Shown here: piece by piece, positions 14,208 to 33,122 of the stretch
Layout of the letters: each line of letters opens with the position of its first letter
Position numbering within the stretch: the first letter of the stretch is position 1
From: Gammaproteobacteria bacterium
GTDB taxonomy: Bacteria > Pseudomonadota > Gammaproteobacteria > Eutrophobiales > Eutrophobiaceae
Assembly: GCA_965222155.1 (NCBI GenBank)
Contig: CBDCTH010000012.1
Span: forward strand, 2,848,001-2,912,000
Reading direction: 5' to 3'
DNA length: 64,000 nt
Position numbers and translations under genes: made by a program
The notes under the pieces: generated by a model
Told to the model about the DNA's origin: nothing
The model's input: the letters and a program-made list of their open reading frames with translations, nothing else
Databases searched by the model: none

Positions 14208-14252
14208 CAACCTACGTGAGAAATACCGGACAGGTGACTGGGATTGTACAAC

Positions 14253-15834: not shown

Positions 15835-17754
15835 TCACCACTCGCTCAACCCCCATAAATTTGTACCAACTGCGACCAAACGCTCATTCCCATGTATCTG
15901 CATGTTTTCTGCAACTCCCCTTATTTCAGACAAACGTCGCTTCAATTCTTGACTACTTAGAGGTTCACCTGCTTCCTCCAATATCTGAATAAAAGAGTCA
16001 ATCGTTTCGATTCGATCGCCAGCCGTCATTCCAGAATCTGCTCTTGCCCAAACCATACGGTTTAAAAAAGTAATTTTTGAAGAACGTGCAATGCACATAC
16101 GTAACACGTAGTGGTCTAGCTCTTCCAGAACACCAGGGAACTGAGTGGTCAACTGTTCGATGATTTCTTCGGAATGCCACTGCTTATTGATAGGAGCTTG
16201 ATAAAGCATATGCTCTACTACGCGGCAAATACTTTGACGTTTGGAAGCGGGCAACGGGCAATGATCGATCAACCCATAAGTACCCCGATCAAACGGCCAA
16301 ACACTCTCTCTTATAAGAGCATTATGAGCTGTTCGTTCATCTACCTCTTTACCCAATAATTCACTTGCCCTTTTAGCAATTTCAGTAAAATGCAACGGAC
16401 CTTCTGCTTGAGCAAGAACTGCAGTCACCGCTGATTCTGCCGATTTCCCAAAGGCAATTAATAATGCTTGCGAGTCTTCGTCTTCGTATTGTAGAAACTC
16501 ATCGAATATTTCATGCAAAAGAGGAACCAATTCCCGTGAACTGTATTCGGACAAACTAGTTTCTATATATTGTTTGATATCGCTTCGCCCCCACTGCTTT
16601 TCTTCAGCTTTTTGTTTTAATCTAGCGCGAAGCTCACGTACTAAAACATCCCATTCATTTTGGTTGATTCTTGTTACAACATTTCTCCCGGCTGCTGTGA
16701 TAACACAGACTGCATTTTTTGAAAATAACTGTATCGTTTGGGCAAGGTAAACATAGTTGTCCTCAAATCCTTTAAACCACGTATCTTCAATCTCCAACAG
16801 TTCCAAAATAAGTGGTTCTTCTCGGTCCAGTAATAGCTGTCCGATACGGATGCCAATCATATCGTCCCAGTATTCCTGGGCAATAATACGATTAACGTAT
16901 TTTGTTTGGCGTTGTCTTACCCGTTCTCGAGTTACATCAAGTATTTCGCCAATTTCTTCTAATGTTAGAAGTTTTCCTTTATGCCCAAGACGTCCCTGCA
17001 ATACAATTCTGTCCACTTCATCTAACTCATCTAACGTCCTTTCCAGATGTGTTATCAAGGGCAATTGCGCCACATGAGAATTCAAACGAACCAAATAGCT
17101 TTTATCAATTGTGTCTTCTGGCGTTACACCTAAGCCATCTGGCGGCCAGCTTTCCAATTTTGTCCCCAATGACAAGCCGTACGCGGTCAGTGCATCCTTA
17201 ATTTCTTTCAAGGACGTTTTACCCAGATTGGGCATTTTTAATAACTCAACTTCCGTACATTGAACCAGTTCGCCAATATAACGAATGCTGTTTGCTCCCA
17301 TGCAATGTGTGGAACGTACAGACAACTTCAAATCAGCTATCGGACGTAACAAATTTAGGTCAACTTCTGGCTCCGGCTCATCAACTGGATGTAACTGGAC
17401 CAAGTCTACTTCCGGTTCTTCAATCTCATAACCCCACTGATTTAGAGCCAGATAGCAGGGTGTTACTGCCTCATTCAGCTTGATATGTGTAATTACATTT
17501 ACGCTATTTTTGTATACTTCGGGCAGTGCCCATTTCACCGCGCCTGAATACAGCACTTTGCCTGAAGTATTCTCTGGAAGCTCAATGTGATTATTAACTT
17601 GAGGTCTTGTAAAACCGCAGTGGATGATGGCAGTCTTAGCCGCGTCAGACCGTCTATTCCATACTTGTTGCAAACTATCTAATTCACGAACGGTGACAAT
17701 TTCTTCGACCTGATTGTTTTTAACTACAATCAGGTAAAGTTTAAGCGCGGACAT
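15835..17754 (-). CDS. Protein with an RNA polymerase alpha-CTD domain, a sigma70 region 4 HTH and C-terminal winged-helix-like repeats
   Basis: aa ~131-207 [15 protein letters not shown]...[33 protein letters not shown]...LSLG..LESWPP parallels RpoA CTD; aa ~240-290 [18 protein letters not shown] is sigma region 4; starts 2 nt after the upstream stop. Confidence 0.85.
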
Positions 17755-17756
17755 AA

Positions 17757-18131
17757 CTAATCCAATAACTTATCCCAGGGTAGCTTGCCCATGTTTTTAT
17801 CATAAGCATCATAAAAATCCCGAATACCCTGCTCTCCGAAACGCTCAACTATATGATAAATTGCTTCACCCTGCTTCTGTAAATTTGCTGCATCAACAGC
17901 AAAAAACAATGCCTTATCCGGGTCTAACTCACCCACACGAAATGCATTATCGGTTTTCTCTGATAAAGGCTCAGGTGTTATGCCCTTCTTTACCCCCAAA
18001 GCTACAGCTAGGCGATATAAATCGAATTTGATCAAAGTTTGTCCGCTGGCTTCACTATTCAGAGAATCAAGCATTTCATCAAGGTAAGCATTCGCTTGTT
18101 TGGTTAAACCGATTCGTGGCGGCTCTGCCAT
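17757..18131 (-). CDS. pbeD: Small protein, probable PbeD
   Basis: 124 aa, directly after the SMC-like ATPase. Assigned mainly by position and size in a dndCDE-pbeABCD layout. Confidence 0.55.
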
Positions 18132-20117
18132 TTACATCACCCTATCAATACGAGATTGCGTCGCGGAAACACGTTTGATTTCATAGCGCGCACCAATGCG
18201 CGAGGCAAAAACTTCCGTATCTTGCTTTGCATGAAGCTCACCTTCGTGTACTAACAATACAACCTGTTCAGACATATCAGGCAGGTACTGCAGAATATTT
18301 TTGCGGTGTTTGGGGTCTAATCGCCCTAAAGGGGTATCCATAACAATTGGTGCCTTCGTACCTGAAGTTTTATTAAGACCATCAATTAACGACAGCGCCA
18401 CGACCTGCTCTGCACCGGCACTGCGTTCATTTAGTATTCGCCCCCCTTGGTCCAAAATAGACAAACCATAACTTGGGTTAATTTTCAGATCCGAATAAGT
18501 TTTTTCCGTGGTTATTTGTTTAAAAGCTTTTGTGGCATGAGCTTGGACATCATCTTTTAATTTAAGACGTAGTTGATCGATGCCTTTAGCAAAGATCGTC
18601 TCTAATTGTTGCAATCTGTCTACACGCTGATTACTAACAGAACTTTGAACTCCCCCAAGCTTGGCTATTAATTGAGATATTTTTGCTTGCGTTTCAATAT
18701 TTTTTTCCCTTTTTTTATCCGCTTCTTCAATCCCAACCTCAACTTTAGCTAATAACTTCGACCAGCTTTCGCGTTTTTCTCGTTTCCGCATGATTTCCTC
18801 TGTATCAAAACCCTTTATTTCTTCTTCGATATCATTTCGCTTATTTTCAATAGCCATCAAATTTACTTTTTTCTGTGTGACCTTCCCCATATTAGCAATT
18901 ATTCGAGTGACCTCATTTTCTGAGCGTATACCTTCAAGATTATCAATAGTTTTATTGATTTCCGTTAGCTTATTAAAATCTACACTTTTGCCTGACTCCT
19001 TAGCCAGCAATTTGTTTAATTTTTGCTGTAATGGCAGCCTGATACTGTCGGGTATATCCTGCCCACAGGTATTACAAACTTCTTTATCTTCAAGAGACTT
19101 CTTCAATCCATCTATCTCGCCCTGCAGACTGATAGACTCACGCATAATCTGTTGATGCTTTTCGCGGTTTTCTTTCAAGTCGTTAACTATGGCTTGAACA
19201 CTATTAGCTAATACATCCTTCCAAACTGTTTGTAATAATTTATGGGTGTCATCATTGGCTTGTTTAATTTCGTCTTCAAAATTCTTTTGTTGAGCAGCTA
19301 ACCTGATAAGCTCCATTTTTTTATTTTGTACTACTTCTGTGTTTTTCAAAAAGTCGTCGAGATTATCAATTTTTTCCTGAAAATCTTCTTTTTGAGAATT
19401 TAAGTCTCTAAGGTCATTCTCTATGCTTTCCAGTTTGATCTCGTGATTTTGTTGATCTTGCGCGAACTTACGCAGGTCTTCATATTTTTGAGCATCTTTA
19501 CGTTGGGCAGTACGTGCGTACTTCAACAATTCCCGTAATTCATCTCTCGCATGCACTAATGCTGGAACACCCAATACAGATTCGATATGTTCCTTAATTT
19601 TCTTGCCTTGTTCACTTTCTTCGATTAAAAGGTTTTCATATTCCTGTAATAACTCGCCATCAAATAAAAAAAAGCGTGATACTTCTCTTGGCATTATCTG
19701 GTTAATTTCATTATTGATTGCATCACCTATTATGGGAGTTCCGTCGATTCTTAGGCCAATGACCTCCCTAAAATCGGCATTGTTCCTAGCTTTTGATGTG
19801 TTTTCAAGCTTCTCAATCTTGCGCTCTAGCTGATAGCTTCTTCCATCGTGATTAAAATATAAGGAAACAGACATTGTCCAATCTCCCTCATCTGTGGCAT
19901 CACGATTGACCAGATTTAACCTGGGAATTTCACGTAGGTGACGACCTAGAGCAACCCCGTAAAACCCCCAGCGGATTGCATTTAAGAAACTTGTTTTTCC
20001 CCGCATATTATCGCCAAAGAGCAACATCACATTTTGTGTTTCATGCTGGGGAAACTCGATTTCCTGTTTGCCCTTGAAGGGCATAAAATTATGGAAAATT
20101 ACTTTTTTTACTTTCAT
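18132..20117 (-). CDS. pbeC: SMC/Rad50-like AAA ATPase, probable PbeC
   Basis: Walker A GDNMRGKTS, FFLFDGE, long coiled coil with zinc-hook-like CNTC, signature SAGAEQ, Walker B/D-loop MDTPLGRLD. Confidence 0.75.
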   Translation of the reverse strand: MKVKKVIFHNFMPFKGKQEIEFPQHETQNVMLLFGDNMRGKTSFLNAIRWGFYGVALGRHLREIPRLNLVNRDATDEGDWTMSVSLYFNHDGRSYQLERKIEKLENTSKARNNADFREVIGLRIDGTPIIGDAINNEINQIMPREVSRFFLFDGELLQEYENLLIEESEQGKKIKEHIESVLGVPALVHARDELRELLKYARTAQRKDAQKYEDLRKFAQDQQNHEIKLESIENDLRDLNSQKEDFQEKIDNLDDFLKNTEVVQNKKMELIRLAAQQKNFEDEIKQANDDTHKLLQTVWKDVLANSVQAIVNDLKENREKHQQIMRESISLQGEIDGLKKSLEDKEVCNTCGQDIPDSIRLPLQQKLNKLLAKESGKSVDFNKLTEINKTIDNLEGIRSENEVTRIIANMGKVTQKKVNLMAIENKRNDIEEEIKGFDTEEIMRKREKRESWSKLLAKVEVGIEEADKKREKNIETQAKISQLIAKLGGVQSSVSNQRVDRLQQLETIFAKGIDQLRLKLKDDVQAHATKAFKQITTEKTYSDLKINPSYGLSILDQGGRILNERSAGAEQVVALSLIDGLNKTSGTKAPIVMDTPLGRLDPKHRKNILQYLPDMSEQVVLLVHEGELHAKQDTEVFASRIGARYEIKRVSATQSRIDRVM

Positions 20118-20122
20118 AACAA

Positions 20123-20320
20123 CTACCGGCCGTCATTTTTATTAAGACTGGCCTCAACTAGTTCTCGCATTCTTTCGACTGTATTACGACTTGGATCAAA
20201 CTGGTGTTTTTTTTGTAGTTCATAACATTGCTTTATAAGTTGATCATCAACATCTAATCCCTCACGTCCTTTAATATTCAGCAAAAGGGCAATGATATTG
20301 CTTGACTCAGACATCGCCAT
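20123..20320 (-). CDS. pbeB: Small protein, probable PbeB
   Basis: 65 aa, overlaps the helicase end and sits just before the ATPase. Assigned by position and size. Confidence 0.55.
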   Translation of the reverse strand: MAMSESSNIIALLLNIKGREGLDVDDQLIKQCYELQKKHQFDPSRNTVERMRELVEASLNKNDGR

Positions 20321-22430
20321 TCTCTTCCTCCTCTATGCCGTCGCTATCCATTAACCCTACTGGATCAATATCTAATTCTATAGCCAAATTAGCCAATTCA
20401 ATTGCCGCACTACTGTTTAACGCAGTTTTAGCAAACTGGATACCCCTCTGGAACTCACTCTTTAGCAAAGAAAATTGTTCTGGCTCAGACTCCAAACTTA
20501 CCGGCACTACAATGGCATCGAAAAGAACTGCCTTGTATTTATCCTTGCATGTTCTTAAAACACGTCCTCGCCTTTGAATAAATTGCCTTGGATTCTGGGA
20601 AGAAGCCAAAATAATTGCGTGCGAAATTTTAGGTATATTGACTCCCTGATCCAAACATTTGATAGAACAGAGTATACCCCCGAAATTCTCAAAATATTCA
20701 AGGGTTGCTGTAGTATCACTCTCCATATTCGTATGGTATTCCAACGGAGAAAATCCTTCACGCTTTAAAGAATCCATAACTTGTCTTAATTGAAACTGAT
20801 CCTCACAATAAATGAGCCAGCTCTCGCCCTCATGATACTGTTTCTTTAAGATATCTACAGTGAGAGGAGTTTTTGCTTTAGCCTTCTTCGCTATCCTCGA
20901 GCGTTGGATGATTAAGTTTTGTAAGTATGGCGAAATATGTACATTTCCATCCCTATCTCGTTTGGAACGTGCAAACTCCTTTGAAATCTTATCGGTTTCT
21001 TTCGCCCACTGCTCTGACTCTTCCGCATTAAGCCGAACAGTCACAGGAAAATACTCATAGGGCACAAGACGCCTATCGTTTATCGCATCTACTAATGTAT
21101 ACGGAGGTTGAACAATTACACCAAAATAATTCAGTATTTTGGATGTGCCCTCAGGGTCACCATATCTTTTGGGTGTCGCGCTCAATCCGAGCCTTGGCCC
21201 TGAATCGATAGTTAGTGCTTTAGAGTTCTCTCTACTCCCAACTTCATGTACCTCATCGGCAATTAGCATGATATGTTTACCTTGATTAAGAGAAGCTAGA
21301 AAAGCATCTGTACGCGCTGTCTGCATCGTCACTAATACAACTCTTTTTCCTAAGCCCTGTAACGGTGATGTAAAATCAAACAGTCGCCTGTCTTTTTTCC
21401 ATCTGTTGTGTCCATCACCTGCCTTTAATAGATGCACTCCTTCAATTTCTTCAATAAGTTCTACAGCCCATTGACGATGTAACAGCTTATCTGGAACTAA
21501 AATAATAGCTACGCCTTGAGGCTCCAAGTGTTCTTTGAGGGCGGTGATGGTAGTGAACGTTTTACCGCTACCAGTTGCGTGTTCTAAAATTCCTTTTTTG
21601 TCCTGTTTTTTCCACTCAGCAATAGCTTTTAACTGATGCTTTAGAGGTTTGCGTATTTCATGTGAAGGAGACTCTTCTTTGATTTTATGTTCTGCCAGTT
21701 GATGACCAAGACTGAAAAAATCAATGATATCTCCAGAGTTAATATCATCCAAAGAACTTTTCGCTACCGTTTTGAGCTTTTCTATTCCCACTTCAGGAAA
21801 CGGTATTACTTCCAGATCCCGTACCTGACTATTCCATAGCTTTTCAAAATATTCCTGGTCGCGCCCTACTTGTCTCTCATCTCTACCTTCACGCCAACTA
21901 CAGAATACATCCAGCGTTTCATGATTTCCTCTTTCACACCAACCAGTCCAAGTTTCATTAATTGATCCTTTGAAACTAACGGCATTGTTAAGCTCATCAT
22001 AGAAAATACCCAATTTCGCGTGATAATCACCTTGAGCCTCAGGTAAAAAAGCGAGTTTTACCTCCATTACACCCAGTGAAATTAATGTGGCCAATGCTTC
22101 TGTATTTTTTGCAACCGGCTGATTGGCTAACAAAAAGTCTATATCCCTACTAAGGGCGCTATATGCACCGTCAAATTTGTTTTTATAACCCGTATCAATG
22201 GCTTCAATGTCGTCTTCTGTCAGGTATGGAGAGCTTACCAAGCGTATTTTTCCGCCTCGTTTCACAAAGTTGATGATATCGGGACCAATTAGGATAAAAA
22301 CTGAAGAGCGAAAATAGCCTACAGACCGATTGTATCCGACAGCCTCGGAAAGACATGGACGATAAAAGGCTTCAACCAAATCTGTATCACCGGTAAAATA
22401 TTCCTCTTGTAGATGAATATCTTTTAACAA
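20307..22430 (-). CDS. pbeA: PLD-nuclease + DEAD/DEAH helicase, probable PbeA
   Basis: N-terminal RSVGYFRSS, YHAKLGIF (HxK), GSINET; helicase HATGSGKT, DEVH, LSATP, QFIQRRGRVLR. Confidence 0.78.
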   Translation of the reverse strand: MLKDIHLQEEYFTGDTDLVEAFYRPCLSEAVGYNRSVGYFRSSVFILIGPDIINFVKRGGKIRLVSSPYLTEDDIEAIDTGYKNKFDGAYSALSRDIDFLLANQPVAKNTEALATLISLGVMEVKLAFLPEAQGDYHAKLGIFYDELNNAVSFKGSINETWTGWCERGNHETLDVFCSWREGRDERQVGRDQEYFEKLWNSQVRDLEVIPFPEVGIEKLKTVAKSSLDDINSGDIIDFFSLGHQLAEHKIKEESPSHEIRKPLKHQLKAIAEWKKQDKKGILEHATGSGKTFTTITALKEHLEPQGVAIILVPDKLLHRQWAVELIEEIEGVHLLKAGDGHNRWKKDRRLFDFTSPLQGLGKRVVLVTMQTARTDAFLASLNQGKHIMLIADEVHEVGSRENSKALTIDSGPRLGLSATPKRYGDPEGTSKILNYFGVIVQPPYTLVDAINDRRLVPYEYFPVTVRLNAEESEQWAKETDKISKEFARSKRDRDGNVHISPYLQNLIIQRSRIAKKAKAKTPLTVDILKKQYHEGESWLIYCEDQFQLRQVMDSLKREGFSPLEYHTNMESDTTATLEYFENFGGILCSIKCLDQGVNIPKISHAIILASSQNPRQFIQRRGRVLRTCKDKYKAVLFDAIVVPVSLESEPEQFSLLKSEFQRGIQFAKTALNSSAAIELANLAIELDIDPVGLMDSDGIEEEENGDV

Positions 22431-22481
22431 CAGAAAAACCCCTGATAAGGCCTACGAAACTTCTATTCGGTTCATCATGCC

Positions 22482-22886
22482 TTAATTACTCTGTTTATCT
22501 TTATGTTGCCTCGTGAGAGAAAGCAAATCGGACAAACATCTGACCTTTCCCGATGTCCCTAAGTAGCCGATACCACGGTGGAGATGTAATTTAAACTGCT
22601 GCGCCAACGTTGTATCGTCAGTTGGTAACTTGTCACGAAGACAACGCGTTTTCAACACAGCGATCAGTAATTCTTCATTACCAGGGCCTGTAAAAGTCCG
22701 CCAGGACATCTCTACGTTGCTATCAGTAACAATATCCATTTTGGGGGGTATACTTTTTTCCGCCAAAGAAAGGCAAAATGCCCACCTGCAGAGAATATTC
22801 CATTGAGATATACCAGTTTTGCGCTTCAAATTAGACAAACGGTCTTTTGCTTCACTGGACAGCCGGATGTTTCCTAGGCCAGTCAT
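22482..22886 (-). CDS. dndE: DNA sulfur modification protein DndE
   Basis: IRLS..AKDRL..LKRKTGI..WNILCRWAFCLSLAE...DSNVEMSWRTF...LHLHRGIGYL. Confidence 0.95.
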   Translation of the reverse strand: MTGLGNIRLSSEAKDRLSNLKRKTGISQWNILCRWAFCLSLAEKSIPPKMDIVTDSNVEMSWRTFTGPGNEELLIAVLKTRCLRDKLPTDDTTLAQQFKLHLHRGIGYLGTSGKVRCLSDLLSLTRQHKDKQSN

Positions 22887-24871
22887 ACACTCTCCAGAAA
22901 TCCGTTAGAAACAGTGGTTGCACCCGTTGCGTCATCATAGTCTAAGTGGTAACTCTTTCCGACCCATGGGCGCAATCGATATAGATAATCGCCAGCAATT
23001 TCTTCATCTGTGGTAAACAGCAATGTTTGATGGCTCGCGTTGGGGAGATATCGCTCGACCAGACGGTCCCGGTGAGTTGAATCGAGACGTCCCATTGGCG
23101 TGTCAATGGCAACAGGCAGTAATTTACCTGACGCTTTTGCCATTCCCCATAGCAGGGCGACAGCCAGTAACTGTCGCTCGCCGGCTGATAACTGCTCGGA
23201 GGAAATGGGGGTTTGTTCCATGTCGCGCAGAAGAACAGCAAAGGTCTCCGGATGGATCCGTAATGTAGAAATCAACCTGTCTTTACGTAGTAAGGATTGA
23301 TAACTTTCCAGTGCCAGACGTTCCACGCTCCCGATATGACGGTGCAAAACGGCGGAACCGAACTCCGCCAGTGTCTGTCTCGCTAATTGTGAGTGTTGCA
23401 TAAAACGTTCGTCGTCCCTGTGTGATAACTTAGATTCGGCATTCTTTTCCCATAAGGTATTGATCTGGGATTCGAGACGATCACTCTCCCTGCGTATTTT
23501 TTCAAGTTCACTGTCTATACTTGTGATTTCATTTTCCAGTCTTATGATTTTGGTAACCAGTAAATCACGTTTTTTGACAATCTCATCAATAGAATCTTCT
23601 GGAGGAATTCCCGCTTTTTCTAACAGCGCCGCTTTCATTTCATCCCCTAGCTTGTGCTGCTTCACGAGTATATCCCTGACACTTTTTTCCAAACGAGACA
23701 GTTTGCTTTGCAGAAACGTATTCAGTCGCGTGACATTAGCATCACTTATGTTTAGCGGGGTTTTACCGGCTGCCAGTTCCTCCTGTTTTTCTAAATCGTC
23801 CTTGCAGAATTCTTCCAAAGCTTCCACCACGGCAGATGTATTCGACAGGGTTTGTACCAAACGAAGCATTCTAGTATCGCGCTCGCGCAGGTTTTCCACC
23901 ATGGCACGAGCCTGTGCAATCTTCTGTCCCTTTGTTGCATAACAGGCTACATCGTGCAATAGATCCTCGATCAAGAGCAATGGCAATTCGCTATTTGCGA
24001 GTTCCGCCATTTGGATATTACAAGCATCAAGGTTAGCTTCTACTTTGTTTACGCGGCGTTGTATTTCCTCGCGCCGGTCACGTAGTTCGCCCCCCAACAT
24101 TCGATACTCCTCCATCACGCAAGCTAGATCATCTCTGACCATGTCCAGTTCCTGTGTTTGTAGAACGGCTCTTTTTTCCACCTTCCGTTCGATTTGTTTA
24201 CGGAGAGACCTTGACTCCTTTTCTTTTTGGCGGATGATTTCGTTGTCTACGGCAGGCATTGTCGTACCCTGCCGCCGTCGTTCCAGAACTCGCAGATCCT
24301 TTTGCAGGCGTTCTACCACGTCTATACCAAACAGGTTGCGTACTCCGTTTGCGATCAGTTGACGGGCGCCATCTGGTGACGCGTAGGCGGCAATTTTTTC
24401 CCCATCAAAGAAGAACAGATGAGCAATATTCACCGGGATGATGTCATTGACATATTGGCCCCAGTTTTCCGTGAGAGATTTGTCAATACATTGATCTCGG
24501 GTAACCTCCAGTTTTTCCTTGACGCTATTGTTGGCACCTTCACTTTGCCAAGCACGAGTCACGTGGTAACAGGTTTCCACACTGTCTACAGTGCATCGAA
24601 AAACAACGGAAATGGAAGCCTGTCTCCTCGGTGAATGTTTATGGATTTTACTGGCGAGGAAGTCTTTATAACCACTACCATTGCGCCCTGCACACGTAGC
24701 TGCGGGGCCGAACAGGCACAGCTGTAGAGCGTCCATCAGTGTTGTTTTGCCAGCGCCGTTCAGTCCGCCAAACAACACAATCGGCTTATCCGAGGACGGC
24801 GGAGTCAAATCAATTTCCTGCACGCCAGCATACACCCCGAAGTCGTGCAATGTGATTTGATCAAGAATCAT
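22883..24871 (-). CDS. dndD: DNA sulfur modification protein DndD (SMC-like ATPase)
   Basis: GGLNGAGKTT, LFFFDGEKI, LSAGERQLLA, IDTPMGRLDSTHR, ASHQ; lies between dndC and dndE. Confidence 0.93.
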   Translation of the reverse strand: MILDQITLHDFGVYAGVQEIDLTPPSSDKPIVLFGGLNGAGKTTLMDALQLCLFGPAATCAGRNGSGYKDFLASKIHKHSPRRQASISVVFRCTVDSVETCYHVTRAWQSEGANNSVKEKLEVTRDQCIDKSLTENWGQYVNDIIPVNIAHLFFFDGEKIAAYASPDGARQLIANGVRNLFGIDVVERLQKDLRVLERRRQGTTMPAVDNEIIRQKEKESRSLRKQIERKVEKRAVLQTQELDMVRDDLACVMEEYRMLGGELRDRREEIQRRVNKVEANLDACNIQMAELANSELPLLLIEDLLHDVACYATKGQKIAQARAMVENLRERDTRMLRLVQTLSNTSAVVEALEEFCKDDLEKQEELAAGKTPLNISDANVTRLNTFLQSKLSRLEKSVRDILVKQHKLGDEMKAALLEKAGIPPEDSIDEIVKKRDLLVTKIIRLENEITSIDSELEKIRRESDRLESQINTLWEKNAESKLSHRDDERFMQHSQLARQTLAEFGSAVLHRHIGSVERLALESYQSLLRKDRLISTLRIHPETFAVLLRDMEQTPISSEQLSAGERQLLAVALLWGMAKASGKLLPVAIDTPMGRLDSTHRDRLVERYLPNASHQTLLFTTDEEIAGDYLYRLRPWVGKSYHLDYDDATGATTVSNGFLESV

Positions 24872-26375
24872 CTGTATGTGTGTCTATTTCCTGTTTTTCA
24901 GCCACCGCGGTGAGTATCTGCTGACGTTGCCGGGCACGACCGACGGCATCTTCTTCATCACTATAATAGTTGCGCTCAATTGCGCTTTGCAGAGATTGAA
25001 ACACACCGGTACGGCGTATTGCCGGTTTATGGCGGCTTCCTATGGCAAGCAGCTCTCGTACCATTTCGTATTGATTCTGATTTTCGCCGCACAATTCACG
25101 TAGTAGTTGCATTTCCTGAGCACTGAAAACCGCACTATTATTAAGCTTACGCCCAGGATATTCTTCGCCGGTGGCGTCCTGATAAATACGTGGGAGATTA
25201 TCTTCCATCTCATGTTTTTCCACGACCCAGATGCGGCGAATCTCCTCCATTTCTTCCAGCTGAATCAGAGACAGGTTGCGGACGTATTCCGGTCCAATAC
25301 GGCGCACGATTGCTTGCGTTTCCAGCAGACGATGCAGTAGATGTTCGCGAAATTCTTGCTTATAGGGGCCAGGAATAGTTCGTCCATGAAAAAGCTGAAC
25401 TTGGCCATTCATGCGCCGGTAGTCTCGTAAAGGGCGGTCACCACCTTCTGGCATTGCGCGAAAATCAATCTCAGCCCGAATCTCCAAAAGCGGCATCATC
25501 CATTGCTTTTCCTCGTCGTTATGAATCATAGCCTGCATAGATTTGTCTTTTTCCACCAGCGTGCAAACCCAGCAACCGAAACGACTGTCACCACAACTTG
25601 GCGTCCCACTGGACACCACCAGCGGACACTCACCACCTTCCGTTGCACCTTTATACATGCTGAACAGATCCATGTTATCATGCCCCCACGGATTAGACTT
25701 TTCCAGTAGAAAAAGCCAAACATCATCATTTGCCCAATCCTCAATCGGCGTGTAAATGAACGAGTTGGAAAGATTGGCGTTCGGACTGATTTTTGCTCGT
25801 ACTCGCCCTTCTTCATGTCGGTCCATTGTTCGCGCGCGAGCTACACTTTCCGCCTTGCGGGAACCGAGAACTAAAAGTGTTTCACCATGTTTGTCAACTA
25901 CGGACGAAATGAAACGATGCGCCGGACGGATTTTTAATCGCTCAGTACACCAACGAAATTTTTGGCGTGGCGCTGCGTACCCTCGTCCAATCAGATTGAC
26001 CCAAAAACTATCAGCCAACTCTGGCGTTAAGCGATGCGAGGTGATGGGTAACCCTTGTGCCTCGGCGGCGTTTTGCATCTTGCTCAACGAATTACCCACC
26101 CAGGCGGCGACAATCGGGTTTTCTACCAATGTGTCTGTGCTGATGACATGAACGGGCTTATGTGCCCGTTTCGTTCCAATGCTTTGCAATGCAAACCAAA
26201 CCAATTGCAGGGTTGCCGTCGAGTCCTTGCCGCCACTGTATCCGACCGTCCAGGGAATATCATCGGCAAGATACACTTCCACCAATTCCTGCACGATAAC
26301 AGCAACACCCTCCTCAAAATCACCGCACGCATCAAAATATGAACAAGGTATGTTACCGTTTTGTTTCGCAGTCAT
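24861..26375 (-). CDS. dndC: DNA phosphorothioation sulfurtransferase DndC
   Basis: YSGGKDS, DTLVENP, FRWCTERLKI, ECPLVV...PSCGDSRFGCWVCT. Confidence 0.95.
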   Translation of the reverse strand: MTAKQNGNIPCSYFDACGDFEEGVAVIVQELVEVYLADDIPWTVGYSGGKDSTATLQLVWFALQSIGTKRAHKPVHVISTDTLVENPIVAAWVGNSLSKMQNAAEAQGLPITSHRLTPELADSFWVNLIGRGYAAPRQKFRWCTERLKIRPAHRFISSVVDKHGETLLVLGSRKAESVARARTMDRHEEGRVRAKISPNANLSNSFIYTPIEDWANDDVWLFLLEKSNPWGHDNMDLFSMYKGATEGGECPLVVSSGTPSCGDSRFGCWVCTLVEKDKSMQAMIHNDEEKQWMMPLLEIRAEIDFRAMPEGGDRPLRDYRRMNGQVQLFHGRTIPGPYKQEFREHLLHRLLETQAIVRRIGPEYVRNLSLIQLEEMEEIRRIWVVEKHEMEDNLPRIYQDATGEEYPGRKLNNSAVFSAQEMQLLRELCGENQNQYEMVRELLAIGSRHKPAIRRTGVFQSLQSAIERNYYSDEEDAVGRARQRQQILTAVAEKQEIDTHTDDS

Positions 26376-26601
26376 CTTTATCCTAGTTCAATACTTATGA
26401 GACAAACTAAGCAGTCTGTGTGAATTGTTGATAATACGCCATTGGTAGTCGTTAAGCCAATTCCGTCATGGTAACGACAGGTGTTTTTACATGGTTGATA
26501 CTCTGACTGTTTTTGGTTAATGGCAGTCACCAACAGCCTGTCACTGAAATTCGCCCAGCGACGGTTGGACAACTATGCCCTGACCCGGGCCAACCAGCTA
26601 G

Positions 26602-28686
26602 CCCAAGTTTAACACCAACCCCCCGAATTTTGGTTGATTTTGGCTGATTTTCACCTGCAACTGCCGGTAAGTGATTGATTTTTCATGGTGAGGTGGGGGA
26701 GTTTAGCAAATGTAGTGCCATAATATTATATTTGTCTCTTGACGTGCCTTCCCCCGTCCGCTATCCTACCCCCCCTGTTCATCCGTCGCACCCGTACCCG
26801 TCATACCGACACCGGCCAGAAGTATTTCACCTACCGCCTGGTGCGCACCGAACGCATAGGGGAGAAAGTCCGCCAACGCACCCTGCTCAACCTCGGCAGT
26901 CACTACGATATCGACCGGGCCCACTGGCCGATGCTCTGTGCCCGCATCGAGCACTGGCTGGCCGGCCAGGCCGATTTGCTTGATCCGGATTGTCCGGCGG
27001 CGGTGGAAACCGAAGCGCAACGCAGCGCCGCCCAACTGCTGGCCCGCGCCCCGGCGCCCCCCGGCGCGGCGTCCCCCGAGGAGGTGCTGCACCGGGTGGC
27101 CGTCGATTCCCTGGCCCTGCTGCGGCCACGCTCGGTGGGGGTGGAAGCGGTAGGCCTGTGGGCCTTGCAGCAACTGGGCGTGCCGGCCTTGCTGGCACGA
27201 CTGGGGTTGACCGGGCCGCAACAGGCCGCCGCACTGGGGTCAATCATCGGGCGCCTGGCGGCACCGGGGTCGGAACGGGCCACCCATGCCTGGCTGGGTC
27301 AGCGCAGCGCCCTGGGCGAGTTGCTGGGGGTAGACTTTGAAGCCATGAGCGCCCTGCAACTGTATCGTGCCTCGGACGCCTTGCTGGCACACCGGAACGA
27401 CATCGAACGCCACCTGTTCCGGCAAGTGACTGATTTGTTCGGCTTAGCCCCCACCGTGACCCTGTATGACTTGACCAACACCTGCTTCGAGGGGGAGGCC
27501 GGGGCACAGCCGAAGGCGCGCCGCGGCCACTCGAAGGAGACACGCAGTGACTGTCCGTTGCTGACCTTGGGGCTGGTGCTGGACGGCAGTGGCTTTGTAC
27601 GACGCTCCCAGGTATTTGCCGGTACTGTCCGGGAAGACCGTACCCTGGCGGCCATGCTGACGGCGTTAGCAGCGCCGACGGGGGCCTTGGTGGTCATGGA
27701 CCGGGGGATTGCCACTGAGGCCAACATCACCTGGTTGCGTGAGCAGGGCTACCGTTACCTGGTGGTGAGCCGTGCCCGACACCGCCAATTTGACCTGGAG
27801 CAGGCCGTGACGATTGACACCGCCGCCGGGCAGCCGTTGCAACTGCATCGGGAACAGGGCGAGGACGAGACCCGCTTGTACTGTTATTCGGCCGCACGGG
27901 CCGAGAAGGAGAACGCCATGGCGGCCCGCTTCCAACAACGTTTCGAGGCCGGCCTGCAACGCCTGGCCGACGGGCTGGCGCGGCCGCGTACCCGCAAGGG
28001 CTTGAACAGCATCCACCAACGCCTCGGTCGGTTGCGTGAGACGAGTCGGGGGATGGCACCGCATTACGACATTACGGTAACGCCCGACTCCCGCGGCAAG
28101 CAGACCGCGTCCATCACCTGGCAGCGGCGGCCCCATGACGGTTCCCTGCTGACGCATCCCGGGGTGTATTGCCTGCGTAGCAACCTGACTGACTGGGATG
28201 CGGAGACGCTCTGGCGTACCTATACCCTGCTGACCGACCTGGAGGCCGTGTTCCGCGCACTGAAATCGGAGTTGGGTCTGCGTCCGGTGTGTCACCAGAC
28301 GCCGCCACGCGCCGAGGGGCACCTGTTCATCACCGTGTTGGCCTATCAGGCGGTGCAAACTATCCGCCGGCGGCTGCGGGCGCACGGGGAAACGGCCAGT
28401 TGGTCTACCTTGCGCCGTCTGCTGGGGGGACAGCAGCGGGTGACCGCCACCTTCCGGTGTGCCGACCGGCGTACCCTGCATGTACGCAAGGCCACGCGCC
28501 CGGAAGCCGAGCAGCAGGCCCTCTACAGGCTATTGGGCATCGAGGAGAACCCTGGCGGTACGCAAAAGACGGTGGTGTGATACGTTAACTGACCGGCAAA
28601 GGGCACTTTGTAGTGCCAGAAGCCAAATTTATAAATTCTAATTGATTGAATAATAAGAACTTATAAATAGGGGTGTTAAACTTGGG
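26602..28686 (+). mobile_element. IS1634-family insertion sequence
   Basis: Terminal inverted repeats CCCAAGTTTAACACC / GGTGTTAAACTTGGG, CTAG duplicated on both sides (26598-26601, 28687-28690), subterminal TGTAGTGCCA repeats. Confidence 0.92.
26739..28580 (+). CDS. IS1634-family transposase
   Basis: FIRRT...TYRLV...VRQRTLLNLG; LYDLTNT.FEG; RGHSKE.RSDCPL; VVMDRGIATE; EAVFRALKSELGLRP; HLFITVLAY. Confidence 0.9.
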   Translation: MTCLPPSAILPPLFIRRTRTRHTDTGQKYFTYRLVRTERIGEKVRQRTLLNLGSHYDIDRAHWPMLCARIEHWLAGQADLLDPDCPAAVETEAQRSAAQLLARAPAPPGAASPEEVLHRVAVDSLALLRPRSVGVEAVGLWALQQLGVPALLARLGLTGPQQAAALGSIIGRLAAPGSERATHAWLGQRSALGELLGVDFEAMSALQLYRASDALLAHRNDIERHLFRQVTDLFGLAPTVTLYDLTNTCFEGEAGAQPKARRGHSKETRSDCPLLTLGLVLDGSGFVRRSQVFAGTVREDRTLAAMLTALAAPTGALVVMDRGIATEANITWLREQGYRYLVVSRARHRQFDLEQAVTIDTAAGQPLQLHREQGEDETRLYCYSAARAEKENAMAARFQQRFEAGLQRLADGLARPRTRKGLNSIHQRLGRLRETSRGMAPHYDITVTPDSRGKQTASITWQRRPHDGSLLTHPGVYCLRSNLTDWDAETLWRTYTLLTDLEAVFRALKSELGLRPVCHQTPPRAEGHLFITVLAYQAVQTIRRRLRAHGETASWSTLRRLLGGQQRVTATFRCADRRTLHVRKATRPEAEQQALYRLLGIEENPGGTQKTVV

Positions 28687-28721
28687 CTAGCTGAAGTGGA
28701 ATAGCTGAAGGTAATCAACTT

Positions 28722-29816
28722 TCAGCTGAAATTTGGCTGCATCGGTCTCTCTGCAGAGTCCGTCATTTTCACTGCATCCTCTAACACCTTCTCGGCGGCT
28801 TTCAGATTTTCAACCGTTTTATCAATGTCCAGCTTGTCACTGGCGTTGAAGGCTAACCAGTCTTTCCATTGGGCGACAGTCATAGTATGTCCCACCCTCA
28901 TCACCTTCGGCCTGTATACGAATTTTTCGCCTGCTTCAGATATCAGTTTGTGCCACCTGTCCTTCATCTCATATCGCTTATCTTTGTCTGCAATGCACAC
29001 CTTGAAACAAAGTTTTGCATCATCATTTTCAAGTTGAAGGTAGAGACCATCTTCCCCTTCCAGTTTGATCCAGTGCCACCAGAATCCCAGAAAGCCCCCC
29101 GATGGATTACTAACATAACCCCAACTCCACCAGACAGATCTCTCTTTCAATGTCAGTGCTTCCTCAAGGCACCGATAGAATCCTTGCCAAGAACCCCATG
29201 ACCAACTTTTTCTTTCTGCTTTTTTCCAATATTTGAAGCTGTCGGTGTCATTCTCCATTTCTTGCAGATATGCTTTGAAGTCAGTAAGTATCGGGTTGGA
29301 ACCATGGTAGTCATTCAGCACCGACAAAAAATCTGAGCGCTGAAAGACTTTGTACTTGTTCTTTGCACCTTCTATTTCTATTCGTTCTATACGTTGGACA
29401 TCGGCAAGAGGCTGATTGCCTGTCTTGAGATAAATCGGGTAGATATCATCTTTATCAACGACACCAAGTGTCGTCTTCTTATCTCGAACTGCCTCGTAGT
29501 ACCTTTGCAATTGTCTGTCGTGGTCGTCTGTTTGCGTTTTGTCCTCAATTAAAAGCACATGCTTGCCATTGATGCGGGCAAGTACATCAATGCTCTGATC
29601 TTGTTGTTTGATTTCAGCACATTCGATTTCCTCGTACAGGGCGGTCTTATGTTTGCCAAGTAACGCCTGTACAAACCCACGACCACAAGCGTGCAATGCT
29701 TCATCCTTCTGGATATTCTTCTTTTTCGACCAGTCAATCAGCCAACAGATCATTGCGTCTTGCGACAACTCTTTGGTCGCATACTTAAATATATTGGGTC
29801 TGCTTGTGCTTGCCAT
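28722..29816 (-). CDS. PD-(D/E)XK nuclease superfamily protein
   Basis: PNIF..ATKELSQDA..CWL; IDVL...LLIEDK...QLQRY. Start placed at ATG 29816, downstream of ccdA. Confidence 0.75.
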   Translation of the reverse strand: MASTSRPNIFKYATKELSQDAMICWLIDWSKKKNIQKDEALHACGRGFVQALLGKHKTALYEEIECAEIKQQDQSIDVLARINGKHVLLIEDKTQTDDHDRQLQRYYEAVRDKKTTLGVVDKDDIYPIYLKTGNQPLADVQRIERIEIEGAKNKYKVFQRSDFLSVLNDYHGSNPILTDFKAYLQEMENDTDSFKYWKKAERKSWSWGSWQGFYRCLEEALTLKERSVWWSWGYVSNPSGGFLGFWWHWIKLEGEDGLYLQLENDDAKLCFKVCIADKDKRYEMKDRWHKLISEAGEKFVYRPKVMRVGHTMTVAQWKDWLAFNASDKLDIDKTVENLKAAEKVLEDAVKMTDSAERPMQPNFS

Positions 29817-29871
29817 AGTATTGATCTTCTTTCGTACATTATAAAGAAAGCGTTCATACCGAATTGAGTCA

Positions 29872-30117
29872 TCAAAATTCTCTGTACTCATATTCGAAGC
29901 AACTGACCTTGTCCACAAAGTCATTATTAGACTGTATGGCCTTTTTATTTTCTCCCCGCCATTGCTCAACTTTGCTCCACGCCAGTTTTTCCCACAACAC
30001 CTGCTCCAACGTTGCCGATAAGTTGATGTTCAGCGCCCTGGACTTATTTAGTAACTCACTGTTTAAAATAAGGTATATGGTTTTCTTTGGGGCCTGGTAG
30101 TCATACAATGGTTCCAT
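29872..30117 (-). CDS. ccdA: CcdA-family antitoxin (orphan)
   Basis: APKKT..L.LNSELL..SRALNINLSATLE..L...W..ENKKAI...N.FV.......YREF. Confidence 0.8.
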   Translation of the reverse strand: MEPLYDYQAPKKTIYLILNSELLNKSRALNINLSATLEQVLWEKLAWSKVEQWRGENKKAIQSNNDFVDKVSCFEYEYREF

Positions 30118-30275
30118 GCTACGTCCTCACTGGTTAGAGCAGTTCATTATACGCATTGAAATAAGCATTCGTTTATTGGAATATAAGACCTTCTGGCATC
30201 AAATAATTCGTTTCTAACACTGACATTTGCTTTTGTCGCCTCGCCGAATTAGGCTACGAGTAAGGAGAAAATGCC

Positions 30276-30520
30276 ATGACTGTCAAGATAAAGCATGAAA
30301 TTATGAGGCTTGATGCCAAAAATTCCGAAACGTTGCTCAAAACATTGGCCGCGCCTGTGTACTTTAACAGCAAGCTGACAGCCGCCTTTAAGGAACATGC
30401 TCAACGTATAACTAGTAAATGATTTCTATACCTGATTGTTGAACACTTCGATCACATCCATGACAGAGTTGATTTCCAGGATGGGGTAGTCTCGCTGGGT
30501 ACTATTAGCAAACAAATTTC
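30276..30520 (+). pseudogene. Relic of a DUF1778 antitoxin / GNAT toxin (TacAT/AtaRT-like) pair
   Basis: ORF 30276-30422 HEIMRLDAKNSETLLKTLAAP..NSKLTAAF resembles the DUF1778 C-terminal half. It is followed by IVEHFDHIHDRVDFQDGVVSL, resembling the GNAT toxin N-terminus HDR..F.CG...L. Confidence 0.5.
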
Positions 30521-30564
30521 AAACCTGTTTAGTCGGGAAGACAAATAAAGAAAACTAATTAGCG

Positions 30565-32172
30565 ATGAATAAACAAAACTCAGATCAAGTCATCAGCGAT
30601 GTAATGCAGATGGAAGAGCGAAACCGTCAAGCGCTGTCATTATTACTGGACCTACAACGAGAGAAGGATGGACATCTTTTTGCACTCAGTACCCGCATGG
30701 GGGAAACCTCATCCTACGTCACTACCGTGTCCTTGGGATGGGTTGTTCAAAATGTTCATTTCGCCGGGGACTTACCAATATTCAAGGGAAAAGTCGACAA
30801 GATAACAAAAAAAGTGCCTGTTGATGAAAATACAATCCGCGACATCCAGCAACGACAACCTGATTGGGAACGGCAACTACCAATGGCTCTTTATCTGGTC
30901 TTACGAAAGAATCACAAATTCCCTCCACTCCTGGTGGTCGGATATCAGGATTGGGTGTATAGCGATAACGCCGAGCAGTGGGGATTGGATAAACGCGCCA
31001 TGCAAAACAGCCTCACGGTAATGCCGCTGGAGCCCAAAGCCATTTACTTCGATTTAGATGTCAAGAACACCAAATACTATGCTTTAGATGGTCAACATCG
31101 CCTGATGGCGATCTTGGGTCTGCATGAGCTTTTGACTAAGGGAAAGTTATTCTCGCTAGATGTCAATGGGAAACCTAAACCAAACCGCTTAATCACTCGT
31201 GAGGCTATTATTAAACAAATACAAAAGGAAAACGGAGAAGACGAAGGAATGATCCACAATCGGTTAGAGAGATTGATGTCCGAACGCATTGGTATTGAGA
31301 TTATCCCCGCTGTCGCCAATGGGGAAACATATAAAGAAGCACTTTTTCGGTTGCGTGGCATTTTTATCGACGTCAATGAAAATGCAAAAAGGCTGAAGGA
31401 GGGCGAACTCATCCTGCTGGACGAAAATGTAGGATTCCGGATAGTTGTCCGAAATATTATGGTATCGCATGACTTGCTCAAAGGTAAAATTGATCAAAAC
31501 AAAACGCATCTTCCCGAGTCATCCGAGTGTTATACAACTTTGAAGACACTCGTGGAAATAGCGAGAAATTATCTTGGTGCCAAAACAGAGTTTTCTCCCT
31601 GGAAAAATCCTATGTTTGGAAATAAAAATTTTGGATTTATGCGGCCTCATGAATACGAACTCTCTGAAGGTACAATCGCACTGAACAGTTATTTTGATGC
31701 CTTGAAGCAGTTGCCGTCACATGCGCAGTTCATCCAAGGGAAGCCAGCTGGTGATATTAGGAAGAAAAATGGGGAAGACAATATACTCTTTCGTCCAGTG
31801 GCCCAAATGGCTCTTGCTGAGGCAGTAGCAGCTCTTGAGCGTGAAAATGAGATGTCTCTGGAAAGTATCATCAGTGAACTAGCCCGCCAAGAAGAGGCTG
31901 GTCAACTGAAACTTCGGGAGCGCACGGCGCCATGGTTTGGAGTACTGTGTAATCCCCTTGATCAGAAAATGCGCACTAAGAAAGAGTATCAAATCCTTTG
32001 CGGTAAACTTTTTTACTATATGTTGGGTGGCAAAATAGCGGACGACAAGTATCGCATAGATCTCCGGGAAGCATTTGCAGAGGCGCGCCGTGTCGGTGAC
32101 ACCGAGGCGATAAACATCGACGGGAAACCTGTTAGTAAAGATAAAGTTCAGTTGCCCAGCCCATGGCGATGA
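30565..32172 (+). CDS. DGQHR-domain (DndB-like) protein
   Basis: IQQRQPDWERQ, HKFPPLLVV, YALDGQHRLMAI, IFIDVNENAK.L..GE..LLDE, ILFRPVAQ.ALA.A. Confidence 0.88.
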   Translation: MNKQNSDQVISDVMQMEERNRQALSLLLDLQREKDGHLFALSTRMGETSSYVTTVSLGWVVQNVHFAGDLPIFKGKVDKITKKVPVDENTIRDIQQRQPDWERQLPMALYLVLRKNHKFPPLLVVGYQDWVYSDNAEQWGLDKRAMQNSLTVMPLEPKAIYFDLDVKNTKYYALDGQHRLMAILGLHELLTKGKLFSLDVNGKPKPNRLITREAIIKQIQKENGEDEGMIHNRLERLMSERIGIEIIPAVANGETYKEALFRLRGIFIDVNENAKRLKEGELILLDENVGFRIVVRNIMVSHDLLKGKIDQNKTHLPESSECYTTLKTLVEIARNYLGAKTEFSPWKNPMFGNKNFGFMRPHEYELSEGTIALNSYFDALKQLPSHAQFIQGKPAGDIRKKNGEDNILFRPVAQMALAEAVAALERENEMSLESIISELARQEEAGQLKLRERTAPWFGVLCNPLDQKMRTKKEYQILCGKLFYYMLGGKIADDKYRIDLREAFAEARRVGDTEAINIDGKPVSKDKVQLPSPWR

Positions 32173-33122
32173 CCTTGACATCGGCTTCGCTTTGTCCTGC
32201 ACCAGCGTCGGATTCTAATATAGGATTCGCTTCATTAGGAGATGTTGACCGCGCAGGAACCGCCTTTTGTAATGAGGCTCATAATATAGCAACGATTACC
32301 GAGGTACAGAAATACCGCGAATTTAGGATGCATTGTTTGAAAACGACGTTGGGTATAGTAGAGGCAGCCAAGATGCCGTCTCGTGTTTTGGTCAGTGTCC
32401 GCTTGAAACGTCTGGATAGCATTCGACGCAAAATCAGTCGTGGCGAAAATCAATTCAGTCTTGGACGAATGGATGACGTTATCGGCGTCCGGATCATTTG
32501 CCCAGATTATCAAACGGTAGGTGATTTAAGTCAGCGCATACAATCGTTACCGGTTTTTTATCGCTTGAAAGACTATACTCGCGAAACACATCCAGCGAAT
32601 ACTGGCTATCGCTCTGTACATCATATTATTCGATTTGAGCAGCCCTTAACGAAAATTAAAAATATTGCCGTCCGCTTCGAGGTACAAGTAAGAAGTTACT
32701 ACCAGCATCAATGGGCAATCTGGTCGGAACATCAGGGCGAAGCTGTCAAGATGGGCAGCGGTCCCGAAGAGATTAAGACAGATTTACGTAATCTGTCCGA
32801 CCGTATCACCCGCTGGGAGGAAAGTAATCCTCGCGAAATGCAACATCACCTCCTCGATTACACTGGTCGGGAAGACATAATTGTGGCTTGGAGACAAAAA
32901 TACGGTGAGCCGACATATCATATTTTTCATAATAATATTGACCGCGCAGTAAAATGGCTCAATTACATGGAAACTAAACATCCCGCTCAAAGAGGCAATG
33001 CGCTTTTACTAGTAGGCGTAACAACCCCGGGTGAAGCGCGAAATGTCCTGCGACTGACACATCCACTGTACATTACAAGCAGGGTCATAGAACCAGAATA
33101 CTGGATGCCGTCCGATTCCTGA
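32163..33122 (+). CDS. RelA/SpoT small alarmone synthetase domain protein, CapRel-like fused toxSAS
   Basis: RLKRLDSIRRKI, MDDVIGVRII, GYRSVH, EVQVRS..QHQWA; N-terminal DVDRAG; C-terminal extension A...LNYME...ALLLVG...LRLTHPLY; overlaps the DGQHR gene stop. Confidence 0.75.
   Translation: MAMTLTSASLCPAPASDSNIGFASLGDVDRAGTAFCNEAHNIATITEVQKYREFRMHCLKTTLGIVEAAKMPSRVLVSVRLKRLDSIRRKISRGENQFSLGRMDDVIGVRIICPDYQTVGDLSQRIQSLPVFYRLKDYTRETHPANTGYRSVHHIIRFEQPLTKIKNIAVRFEVQVRSYYQHQWAIWSEHQGEAVKMGSGPEEIKTDLRNLSDRITRWEESNPREMQHHLLDYTGREDIIVAWRQKYGEPTYHIFHNNIDRAVKWLNYMETKHPAQRGNALLLVGVTTPGEARNVLRLTHPLYITSRVIEPEYWMPSDS

Follow-up and report, generated by a model that had tools for sequence, protein, structure and literature searches.

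A mobile two-gene module of a DGQHR-domain protein and a small alarmone synthetase, recurrent beside DNA phosphorothioation genes

Results

The gene pair and its conservation

Here we describe a 2.6-kb gene pair in a 64,000-nucleotide stretch of a Gammaproteobacteria genome (GenBank assembly GCA_965222155.1, contig CBDCTH010000012.1, positions 2,848,001 to 2,912,000; this whole stretch is called the window). The upstream gene encodes a DGQHR-domain protein, a divergent relative of DndB with a predicted ParB-type fold, and the downstream gene encodes a small alarmone synthetase-type protein with a synthetase domain only. An initial annotation, made from the letters alone, had singled out the pair as a candidate two-gene defence system, and the elements on which it relied are all present: a DGQHR gene of 535 amino acids (aa) overlapping a synthetase gene of 319 aa, complete synthetase motifs, the lack of a hydrolase domain and the C-terminal strings that it quoted. 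Coordinates of these and all other features are collected in Table 1.

The junction between the two genes is a hallmark of the family. In all 11 full-length pairs the DGQHR protein ends in LPxPWR and its stop codon falls within the start region of the synthetase gene, the overlap being 10 bases in nine pairs, while a 4-base overlap and a 3-base gap were found in the other two. Since the same overlapping junction recurs in 11/11 full-length pairs, the arrangement is not a matter of chance; an overlapping bicistronic layout kept across taxa is also a trait of operons that encode toxic small alarmone synthetases (toxSAS). Fusions of the DGQHR protein to the synthetase were absent from the best 150 of 9,031 representative matches, of which the longest was 467 aa, and a scan for promoters and terminators around the pair yielded nothing useful.

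A DGQHR gene lies directly upstream of the synthetase gene at all 18 loci of this synthetase subfamily, which comprise 14 genome loci, two metagenome loci, one locus from the same genus (G028) and the window itself (loci and genomes are designated by L and G numbers where they have to be told apart). The genome loci come from a scan of one genome per species that returned 15 loci, one spurious and 14 true; among the latter the upstream DGQHR gene was full-length in 11 and truncated in three. The metagenome scan gave two true loci, both on short contigs, together with one distant and one spurious match. By comparison, a DGQHR gene was found within 1.5 kb of other synthetase subfamilies at none of 16 control loci, which were drawn from 401 Acidobacteriota genomes. 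The DGQHR partner is thus peculiar to the present synthetase subfamily, and the pairing is not restricted to one genome.

The synthetase has 233 full-length homologues and the DGQHR protein family is of comparable size. By a rough lower-bound proxy, on which we do not rely, 53 of 120 synthetase clusters have a longest contig equal in length to that of a DGQHR cluster. Pairwise identities of the two proteins are tightly correlated (r = 0.96 over 55 pairs), in line with the joint inheritance of adjacent genes. The pair occurs in Gammaproteobacteria, Alphaproteobacteria, Spirochaetia and Acidobacteriota, and it is rare and patchy, being present in 4/41 related genomes and in 2/401 Acidobacteriota genomes. 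In the tree, Gammaproteobacteria, Spirochaetia, one alphaproteobacterium and Acidobacteriota are intermingled, which together with the patchy presence points to horizontal spread. The low GC of the island in the window is a further sign of mobility. The pair is a real, conserved and mobile two-gene module built from known parts.

The synthetase

The synthetase matches a single Pfam family, PF04607 (RelA_SpoT), at residues 80-186 (E 1.2e-15; 58.2 bits, cut-off 27), and the Pfam search detected no hydrolase (HD) domain in the 319-aa protein. Residues R80, K82, D105, R110, R150, E173 and Q175 are invariant in 120 homologues, and conservation in the same set reaches at least 90% at T147, G148 and the G-loop Tyr149. 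With a PF04607 match above the curated cut-off, no HD domain and the catalytic residues kept, the protein belongs with the small alarmone synthetases. Its best solved sequence match is CapRel SJ46 (7ztb; E 4.6e-16, N-terminal helices included), whose Y155, the position on which alignment places Tyr149, is a catalytic residue of that enzyme (PMC9712102). A profile alignment to CapRel by hhalign (E 3e-14, residues 33-199) covers the synthetase domain only, and so does the match to the PADLOC defence candidate PDC-S33, which is limited to residues 26-225 (E 7.9e-34; profile positions 11-219 of 349).

The AlphaFold2 (AF2) model of the synthetase is of high quality (pLDDT 91.7, pTM 0.91). Structure comparison gave Z 15.2 or 13.9 for CapRel, with 220-227 residues aligned, versus Z 13.5-14.5 for RelP and RelQ, with 172-181 residues; the Z of 15.2 to CapRel was obtained over 220 synthetase residues spanning 19-319. 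In sequence the catalytic domain lies nearest to CapRel, while by structure CapRel ties with RelP and RelQ. The label 'CapRel-like' given in the initial annotation holds for the catalytic domain at the sequence level; it is weakened by the fold comparison, in which RelP and RelQ tie with CapRel, and by the C-terminus, for which the alignment to CapRel is not significant (E 0.46).

Residues 225-319 form a C-terminal domain that is nearly as conserved as the core: 27/95 of its columns are at least 90% conserved, versus 51/128 in the catalytic core. Conservation of this degree is more readily explained by a cellular partner with which the domain co-evolves than by phage proteins, which vary. In the AF2 model the domain has a beta-beta-alpha-alpha-beta-alpha fold, and it is near neutral, with a pI of 6.7. 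Towards its end T299, H300 and P301 do not vary among the 120 homologues; next come L302, with at least 90% conservation, and Y or F. Among synthetases, only CapRel aligns structurally past residue 227. A wide structural search with residues 235-287 returned only weak matches to small beta-alpha-beta domains (Z ~4), and a protein atlas search with the C-terminus was uninformative (best score 0.76).

In CapRel, R79 and R116 flank the adenine site that the YXXY turn plugs (PMC9712102), and these two arginines correspond to the invariant R80 and R110 of the synthetase. A plug related to that of CapRel is plausible for the THPLY turn, even though the strict motif is not kept. As to the substrate, it is the tRNA-targeting toxSAS whose ATP donor site is blocked by pseudo-zinc-finger antitoxin domains (PMC11782079), and from this association we infer that tRNA is the more likely substrate of the synthetase.

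Two further observations concern the synthetase and its genome. Of its cysteines, four are conserved: C58 does not vary among the 120 homologues, C11 and C113 show at least 90% conservation there, and C36 reaches 90% only in a 22-sequence alignment. The window's genome (G000) has only two PF04607 matches, a long RelA/SpoT homologue (728-aa frame) and the synthetase of the pair.

The DGQHR protein

The DGQHR protein scores above the cut-offs of the Pfam DndB family (E 4e-11; 43 bits, cut-off 29.1) and of the TIGR03187 DGQHR family (E 1.1e-27; 97.4 bits, cut-off 58.85) and fails the canonical DndB model TIGR03233 (17 bits, cut-off 328). It matches no PADLOC family. Its relation to canonical DndB is distant (E 9e-7 over 107 columns). 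The AF2 model has a pLDDT of 91.1. A scan of viral contigs with the DGQHR alignment (A3) retrieved no relative of the protein.

Damaged copies occur at some loci. At L006 the DGQHR gene is reduced to a 275-aa open reading frame (ORF) and at L011 it has a premature stop, the synthetase gene being intact at both; at L016 both genes are truncated. The persistence of an intact synthetase beside a broken DGQHR gene at L006 and L011 speaks against a constitutively lethal toxin that is held in check by its partner alone.

Association with phosphorothioation loci

The pair is encoded beside phosphorothioation (dnd) genes, as a phosphorothioate partner would be: DndC lies at most ~7 kb away in 9/15 loci with enough flank. 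The dnd-linked members belong to both main clades of the tree and to four phylum-level groups, and at several of these loci the neighbours include dndA, canonical dndB, dndC and dndD. As a background, dndBCD was reported in 568/31,478 genomes (PMC11662687) and DndD in 70/1,466 genomes (PMC3226654), and the dnd linkage of the pair is far above these frequencies. The association with dnd loci is strong but not obligate. In two genomes DndC is far from the pair or on another contig, and in three only a shorter DndC-like gene is present; the dnd-free loci fall in one tight Vicinamibacterales subclade of the tree, plus one Aestuariivita locus.

A canonical DndB (PF14072, E ~1e-130) coexists with the pair and precedes dndC in at least L005 and L009, and at L013 and L014 a protein of the same cluster as canonical DndB holds that position. 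Beyond dndDE, none of 20 ORFs within ~8 kb at five of the nine dnd-linked loci matched DndFGH, Pbe, DndI or Ssp models. A GIY-YIG gene lies directly upstream of the pair in 5/18 loci and is fused in two of them to TIGR04096, a dnd-associated putative methyltransferase: the fusion proteins of 747-755 aa (L009, 2102-4345; L013, 2094-4361) have a C-terminal GIY-YIG-like stretch and directly precede the DGQHR gene, the TIGR04096 match in L009 having an E of 3.2e-108. Short stand-alone GIY-YIG proteins hold the same upstream position at L005, L014 and L015.

Shorter DndC-like genes were noted beside or instead of full-length DndC at L006 and L011 and in G001, G008 and G010. They show 39-44% identity over ~320-360 residues, in frames of ~395-560 aa, and the one at L006 lies ~5 kb from the pair.

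The island in the window

In the window the pair forms the last genes of a low-GC island, at its ppk end, and the island also holds dndCDE and Pbe-like genes. The right flank ppk-phoU-pstB is common to L003. The same four Pbe-like genes were found outside the window only in L003, L004 and G028. The module is atypical; its distal 124-aa and 639-aa proteins (15835-18131, minus strand) gave no PADLOC match, and the 639-aa protein contains stretches resembling the RpoA C-terminal domain and sigma-70 region 4, with a weak match to MzaA.

A later insertion separates dndC from the pair. The closest relatives, L003 and L004, have neither the transposase nor the PD-(D/E)XK gene, and there dndC and the DGQHR gene are divergent and ~410-560 bases apart. 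The DGQHR protein is the only DndB-family gene product of the window's genome, but its gene does not have the place of a canonical dndB, since it is not the first gene of a dndBCDE operon: in L003 and L004 it points away from dndC, and in the window the insertion lies between the two. The operator of Salmonella DndB, TACG-N8-12-CGTA, has eight matches in the window and none between dndC and the pair.

A 48-codon ORF at 30276-30422 (plus strand) was considered as a third gene and rejected, as its counterpart in L003 is degenerate and that in L004 interrupted. Its product is similar to the C-terminal end of TacA/DUF1778 antitoxins, with a PF08681 match (E 0.0061) that falls below the cut-off. 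This upstream stretch, kept in L003 and L004, is probably a remnant and not a gene. Outside the low-GC island, a 1804-aa helicase (4621-10035, plus strand) with a match to Druantia DruE models (E 2.5e-108) may be part of a separate defence gene cluster.

Table 1 Features of the gene pair and of the surrounding island (positions in the window).
Feature	Position	Strand	Basis and details
DGQHR-domain (divergent DndB/ParB-fold) gene	30565..32172	+	ORF list, ATG start, 535 aa
Small alarmone synthetase-type gene, synthetase domain only	32163..33122	+	ORF list, ATG start, 319 aa
10-base gene overlap (translational coupling)	32163..32172	+	Direct sequence reading, ATGGCGATGA
DGQHR motif, residues 175-179	31087..31101	+	D175, G176, Q177, H178, R179 invariant in 120 homologues
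G-loop Tyr149 codon	32607..32609	+	Hidden Markov model alignment to 7ztb places Tyr149 on CapRel catalytic Y155
Conserved C-terminal domain, residues 225-319, candidate cis-inhibitory or partner-binding	32835..33119	+	Conservation, model
THPLY motif, residues 299-303	33057..33071	+	Falls on CapRel A-YPNY (YXXY) plug in the only alignment found
Low-GC island between ppx (14244-15746) and ppk (33206-35275)	15835..33122		GC 0.460 vs 0.550 outside
dndC-dndD-dndE	22482..26375	-	PADLOC DndC 8.9e-182, DndD 8.3e-193, DndE 1.5e-19; TIGR03183 1.1e-191
Pbe-like module: PbeA, PbeC-like, 124-aa and 639-aa proteins	15835..22430	-	PADLOC PbeA 6.1e-211, PbeC 1e-257
Later insertion between dndC and pair	26739..29969		IS1634-family transposase and PD-(D/E)XK genes
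IS1634-family transposase	26739-28580	+	NF033559 1.2e-80; GC 0.667 vs 0.46 island
PD-(D/E)XK protein, 415 aa	28722-29969	-	PF14281 7e-09; weak PADLOC PDC-S26, E 1e-08

Discussion

With moderate confidence, we read the pair as a mobile two-gene conflict module, of anti-phage or addiction type, that is evolutionarily tied to dnd loci. In the mechanism that we favour, the synthetase would be restrained in cis by its conserved C-terminal domain, in which the invariant HPL[Y/F] turn may close off the ATP-donor site in the manner of the CapRel YXXY turn. The DGQHR protein would bind DNA and a nucleotide and read the state of the DNA, possibly whether it carries the phosphorothioate mark or not, or that the mark has been lost. 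Its contact with the C-terminal domain of the synthetase could then either release or reinforce the block. Once active, the synthetase would stop growth, most likely by pyrophosphorylation of tRNA 3' CCA ends or, alternatively, through the synthesis of (pp)pApp or (p)ppGpp. A more far-reaching version holds that the ParB-fold protein reads the sulphur mark and has under its control not a nuclease but a tRNA pyrophosphokinase or alarmone synthetase that blocks translation, so that the pair would constitute a new phosphorothioate-dependent effector; this we put forward tentatively, as a possibility that we consider rather unlikely to hold in full.

In favour of the dnd link, the pair and a high-scoring DndC (at least 630 bits) coincide fully in 41 related genomes, four having both and the other 37 lacking this DndC type as well as the pair, but the four are kin that probably share one island and are not independent counts. 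Several findings weigh against the conflict module and its proposed mechanism. Pbe-like genes are found with the pair in no more than the four closest islands (the window, L003, L004 and G028), where the pair is consequently not the sole candidate partner of dnd. The idea in the initial annotation that the pair backs up a Dnd-Pbe system is for this reason too narrow, the pair also occurring without nearby dnd genes. At L007, L008, L010 and L015 (three Vicinamibacterales and one Aestuariivita) the pair sits among housekeeping genes; the complete genome G002 has an intact pair and no DndC match, and G001 has only a shorter DndC-like gene, elsewhere in the genome. With regard to the proteins, the synthetase core ties structurally with the non-toxic RelP and RelQ, so that its substrate could be tRNA or a nucleotide. 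The hhalign alignment of the C-terminal domain to the CapRel C-terminus is not significant (E 0.46), although it is colinear over 80 columns and sets strand-helix-HPLY on the strand-helix-YPNY of CapRel, with T-H-P-L-Y on A-Y-P-N-Y. A strict YXXY motif is absent from the family, because its first Tyr is replaced by an invariant His; the YxxY switch that the initial annotation named for CapRel is thus not found as such, and the C-terminus is conserved, unlike the variable sensor domain of CapRel. For the DGQHR protein, matches to the ParB/Srx fold over residues ~40-277 are weak (PadC, Z 6.0; SspE, 5.8; KorB, 5.3; BrxU, 5.1; DndI, 4.5), and Foldseek with the model gave no match at E <= 0.001.

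The pair could instead be a type II toxin-antitoxin or addiction system, in which the DGQHR protein is antitoxin and autorepressor of a constitutively toxic synthetase, the pair stabilises any island that carries it, and the adjacency to dnd reflects hitch-hiking in defence islands. The overlapping bicistronic layout, known from toxSAS toxin-antitoxin operons (Jimmy et al., PMC7229694), agrees with this, as do the four loci where the pair stands alone among housekeeping genes, its patchy presence within the genus and the role of the relative DndB as a DNA-binding repressor (PMC4507180). However, an upstream protein of 535 aa is far bigger than usual antitoxins, and the intact synthetases beside truncated DGQHR genes would be unexpected if the latter were the sole brake. 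Moreover, dnd adjacency in 9/15 loci, across both clades and four phylum-level groups, is hard to obtain by chance hitch-hiking, and a toxin with a conserved C-terminal domain of its own is suggestive of cis-inhibition. We regard the type II arrangement as unlikely overall, while it is the strongest of the competing explanations.

Less probable still is a regulatory accessory of phosphorothioation, with the DGQHR protein regulating dnd and an alarmone made by the synthetase tuning modification or coupling it to growth state. DndB does repress dnd transcription (PMC4507180), the DGQHR protein is the sole DndB-family representative in the window's genome, its gene is divergent from a dndCDE operon that has no dndB of its own in L003 and L004, and the enzyme core resembles the housekeeping RelP and RelQ in structure. 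Yet at least L005 and L009 have canonical DndB in addition to the pair, the DGQHR protein is no more than a distant relative of it, some genomes or loci with the pair have no dnd genes, and none of the eight Salmonella-type DndB boxes in the window lies between dndC and the pair; in addition, the catalytic half of the synthetase matches a defence candidate, PDC-S33, and has CapRel as its best solved sequence match. The GIY-YIG genes directly upstream in 5/18 loci raise the thought that the synthetase makes a nucleotide messenger for a separate effector, such as this nuclease, with the DGQHR protein as the sensor. Since the conserved core consists of two genes, a GIY-YIG gene is missing from 13/18 loci and no further neighbour is conserved, we consider such a signal generator very improbable.

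If the conflict-module reading and its sulphur-mark version are right, growth arrest would follow directly from the state of an epigenetic DNA mark, and the pair would be the missing restriction-side partner in dnd loci without DndFGH, Pbe or DndI. Of the 568 dndBCD genomes mentioned above, 340 have dndFGH nearby and 61 have dndI without dndFGH (PMC11662687); many dnd clusters are without a known restriction partner, and the pair is a concrete candidate for that position. It would be the first link of DNA phosphorothioation to the toxSAS family. At 2.6 kb the pair is small enough for direct tests in E. coli, both in the presence and in the absence of a dnd cluster.

In agreement with the initial annotation, which did not know the pairing as a named system, the literature search found no paper that names it. 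Nor did it find a paper combining DGQHR or DndB with toxSAS, CapRel or alarmone as this pairing, although supplements (the Jimmy et al. datasets, the PANGU preprint) were outside the search and may list the subfamily. In the single paper holding both DndB and alarmone, the passages covered describe RelA/SpoT toxin domains in secreted toxins. No paper mentioning PDC-S33 was found. As far as the literature search reached, the pair is undescribed.

Comparison with known systems

None of the known phosphorothioate-partner models in PADLOC is matched by the pair, and the only PADLOC match of the synthetase is PDC-S33. The 'S' in this name presumably stands for single-gene candidates. The catalytic half of the synthetase matches the PDC-S33 profile, whereas its C-terminal half differs.

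CapRel SJ46, a fused toxSAS and tRNA pyrophosphokinase (PDB 7ZTB, 9ERV), provides the best solved sequence match of the catalytic domain, and the synthetase keeps its G-loop Tyr and the two adenine-coordinating Arg residues (R80 and R110). However, the synthetase is shorter (319 versus 373 aa), its C-terminal domain is conserved where the sensor domain of CapRel is hypervariable (PMC9712102), and a DGQHR gene precedes it at 18/18 loci whereas CapRel is encoded by a single gene. With canonical DndB the upstream protein shares the DGQHR domain, membership of the Pfam DndB family and a dnd neighbourhood; it differs in its length (535 versus ~365 aa) and in the synthetase gene that always lies downstream.

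In DndI and SspE, a ParB-like domain reads the phosphorothioate and controls an effector (PMC11662687). Like these proteins, which combine a ParB-like DUF262 NTPase with an HNH nuclease, the pair has a ParB-superfamily domain with a DGQ[QH]R-type motif beside phosphorothioation genes, and this ParB-type domain is coupled to an effector that is toxic in DndI and SspE and putatively toxic in the pair. Both are among the weak fold matches of the DGQHR model (SspE, Z 5.8; DndI, Z 4.5). In contrast, the effector of the pair is a separate protein and a nucleotidyltransferase, while theirs is a fused nuclease, and the pair has no PADLOC match to DndI or SspE models.

The closest published concept is PANGU, as described in a 2026 preprint (bioRxiv 10.64898/2026.04.06.716658). 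In PANGU type I, the DNA-bound, YejK-like Pag1A activates Pag1B, a toxSAS of the GRel type, and the pair resembles it in that two genes, here for a putative DNA-binding protein and a putative toxSAS, form one operon, the PANGU toxSAS likewise having a C-terminal domain, which there binds the partner. The partner in our case is a DGQHR/ParB-fold protein that matches only the DndB and DGQHR families and is not YejK-like, the C-terminus of the synthetase is near neutral where that of PANGU is an acidic DNA mimic, and the pair is dnd-linked. If our reading is correct, the pair would be the second case, after PANGU, of a DNA-binding protein that controls a toxSAS in trans.

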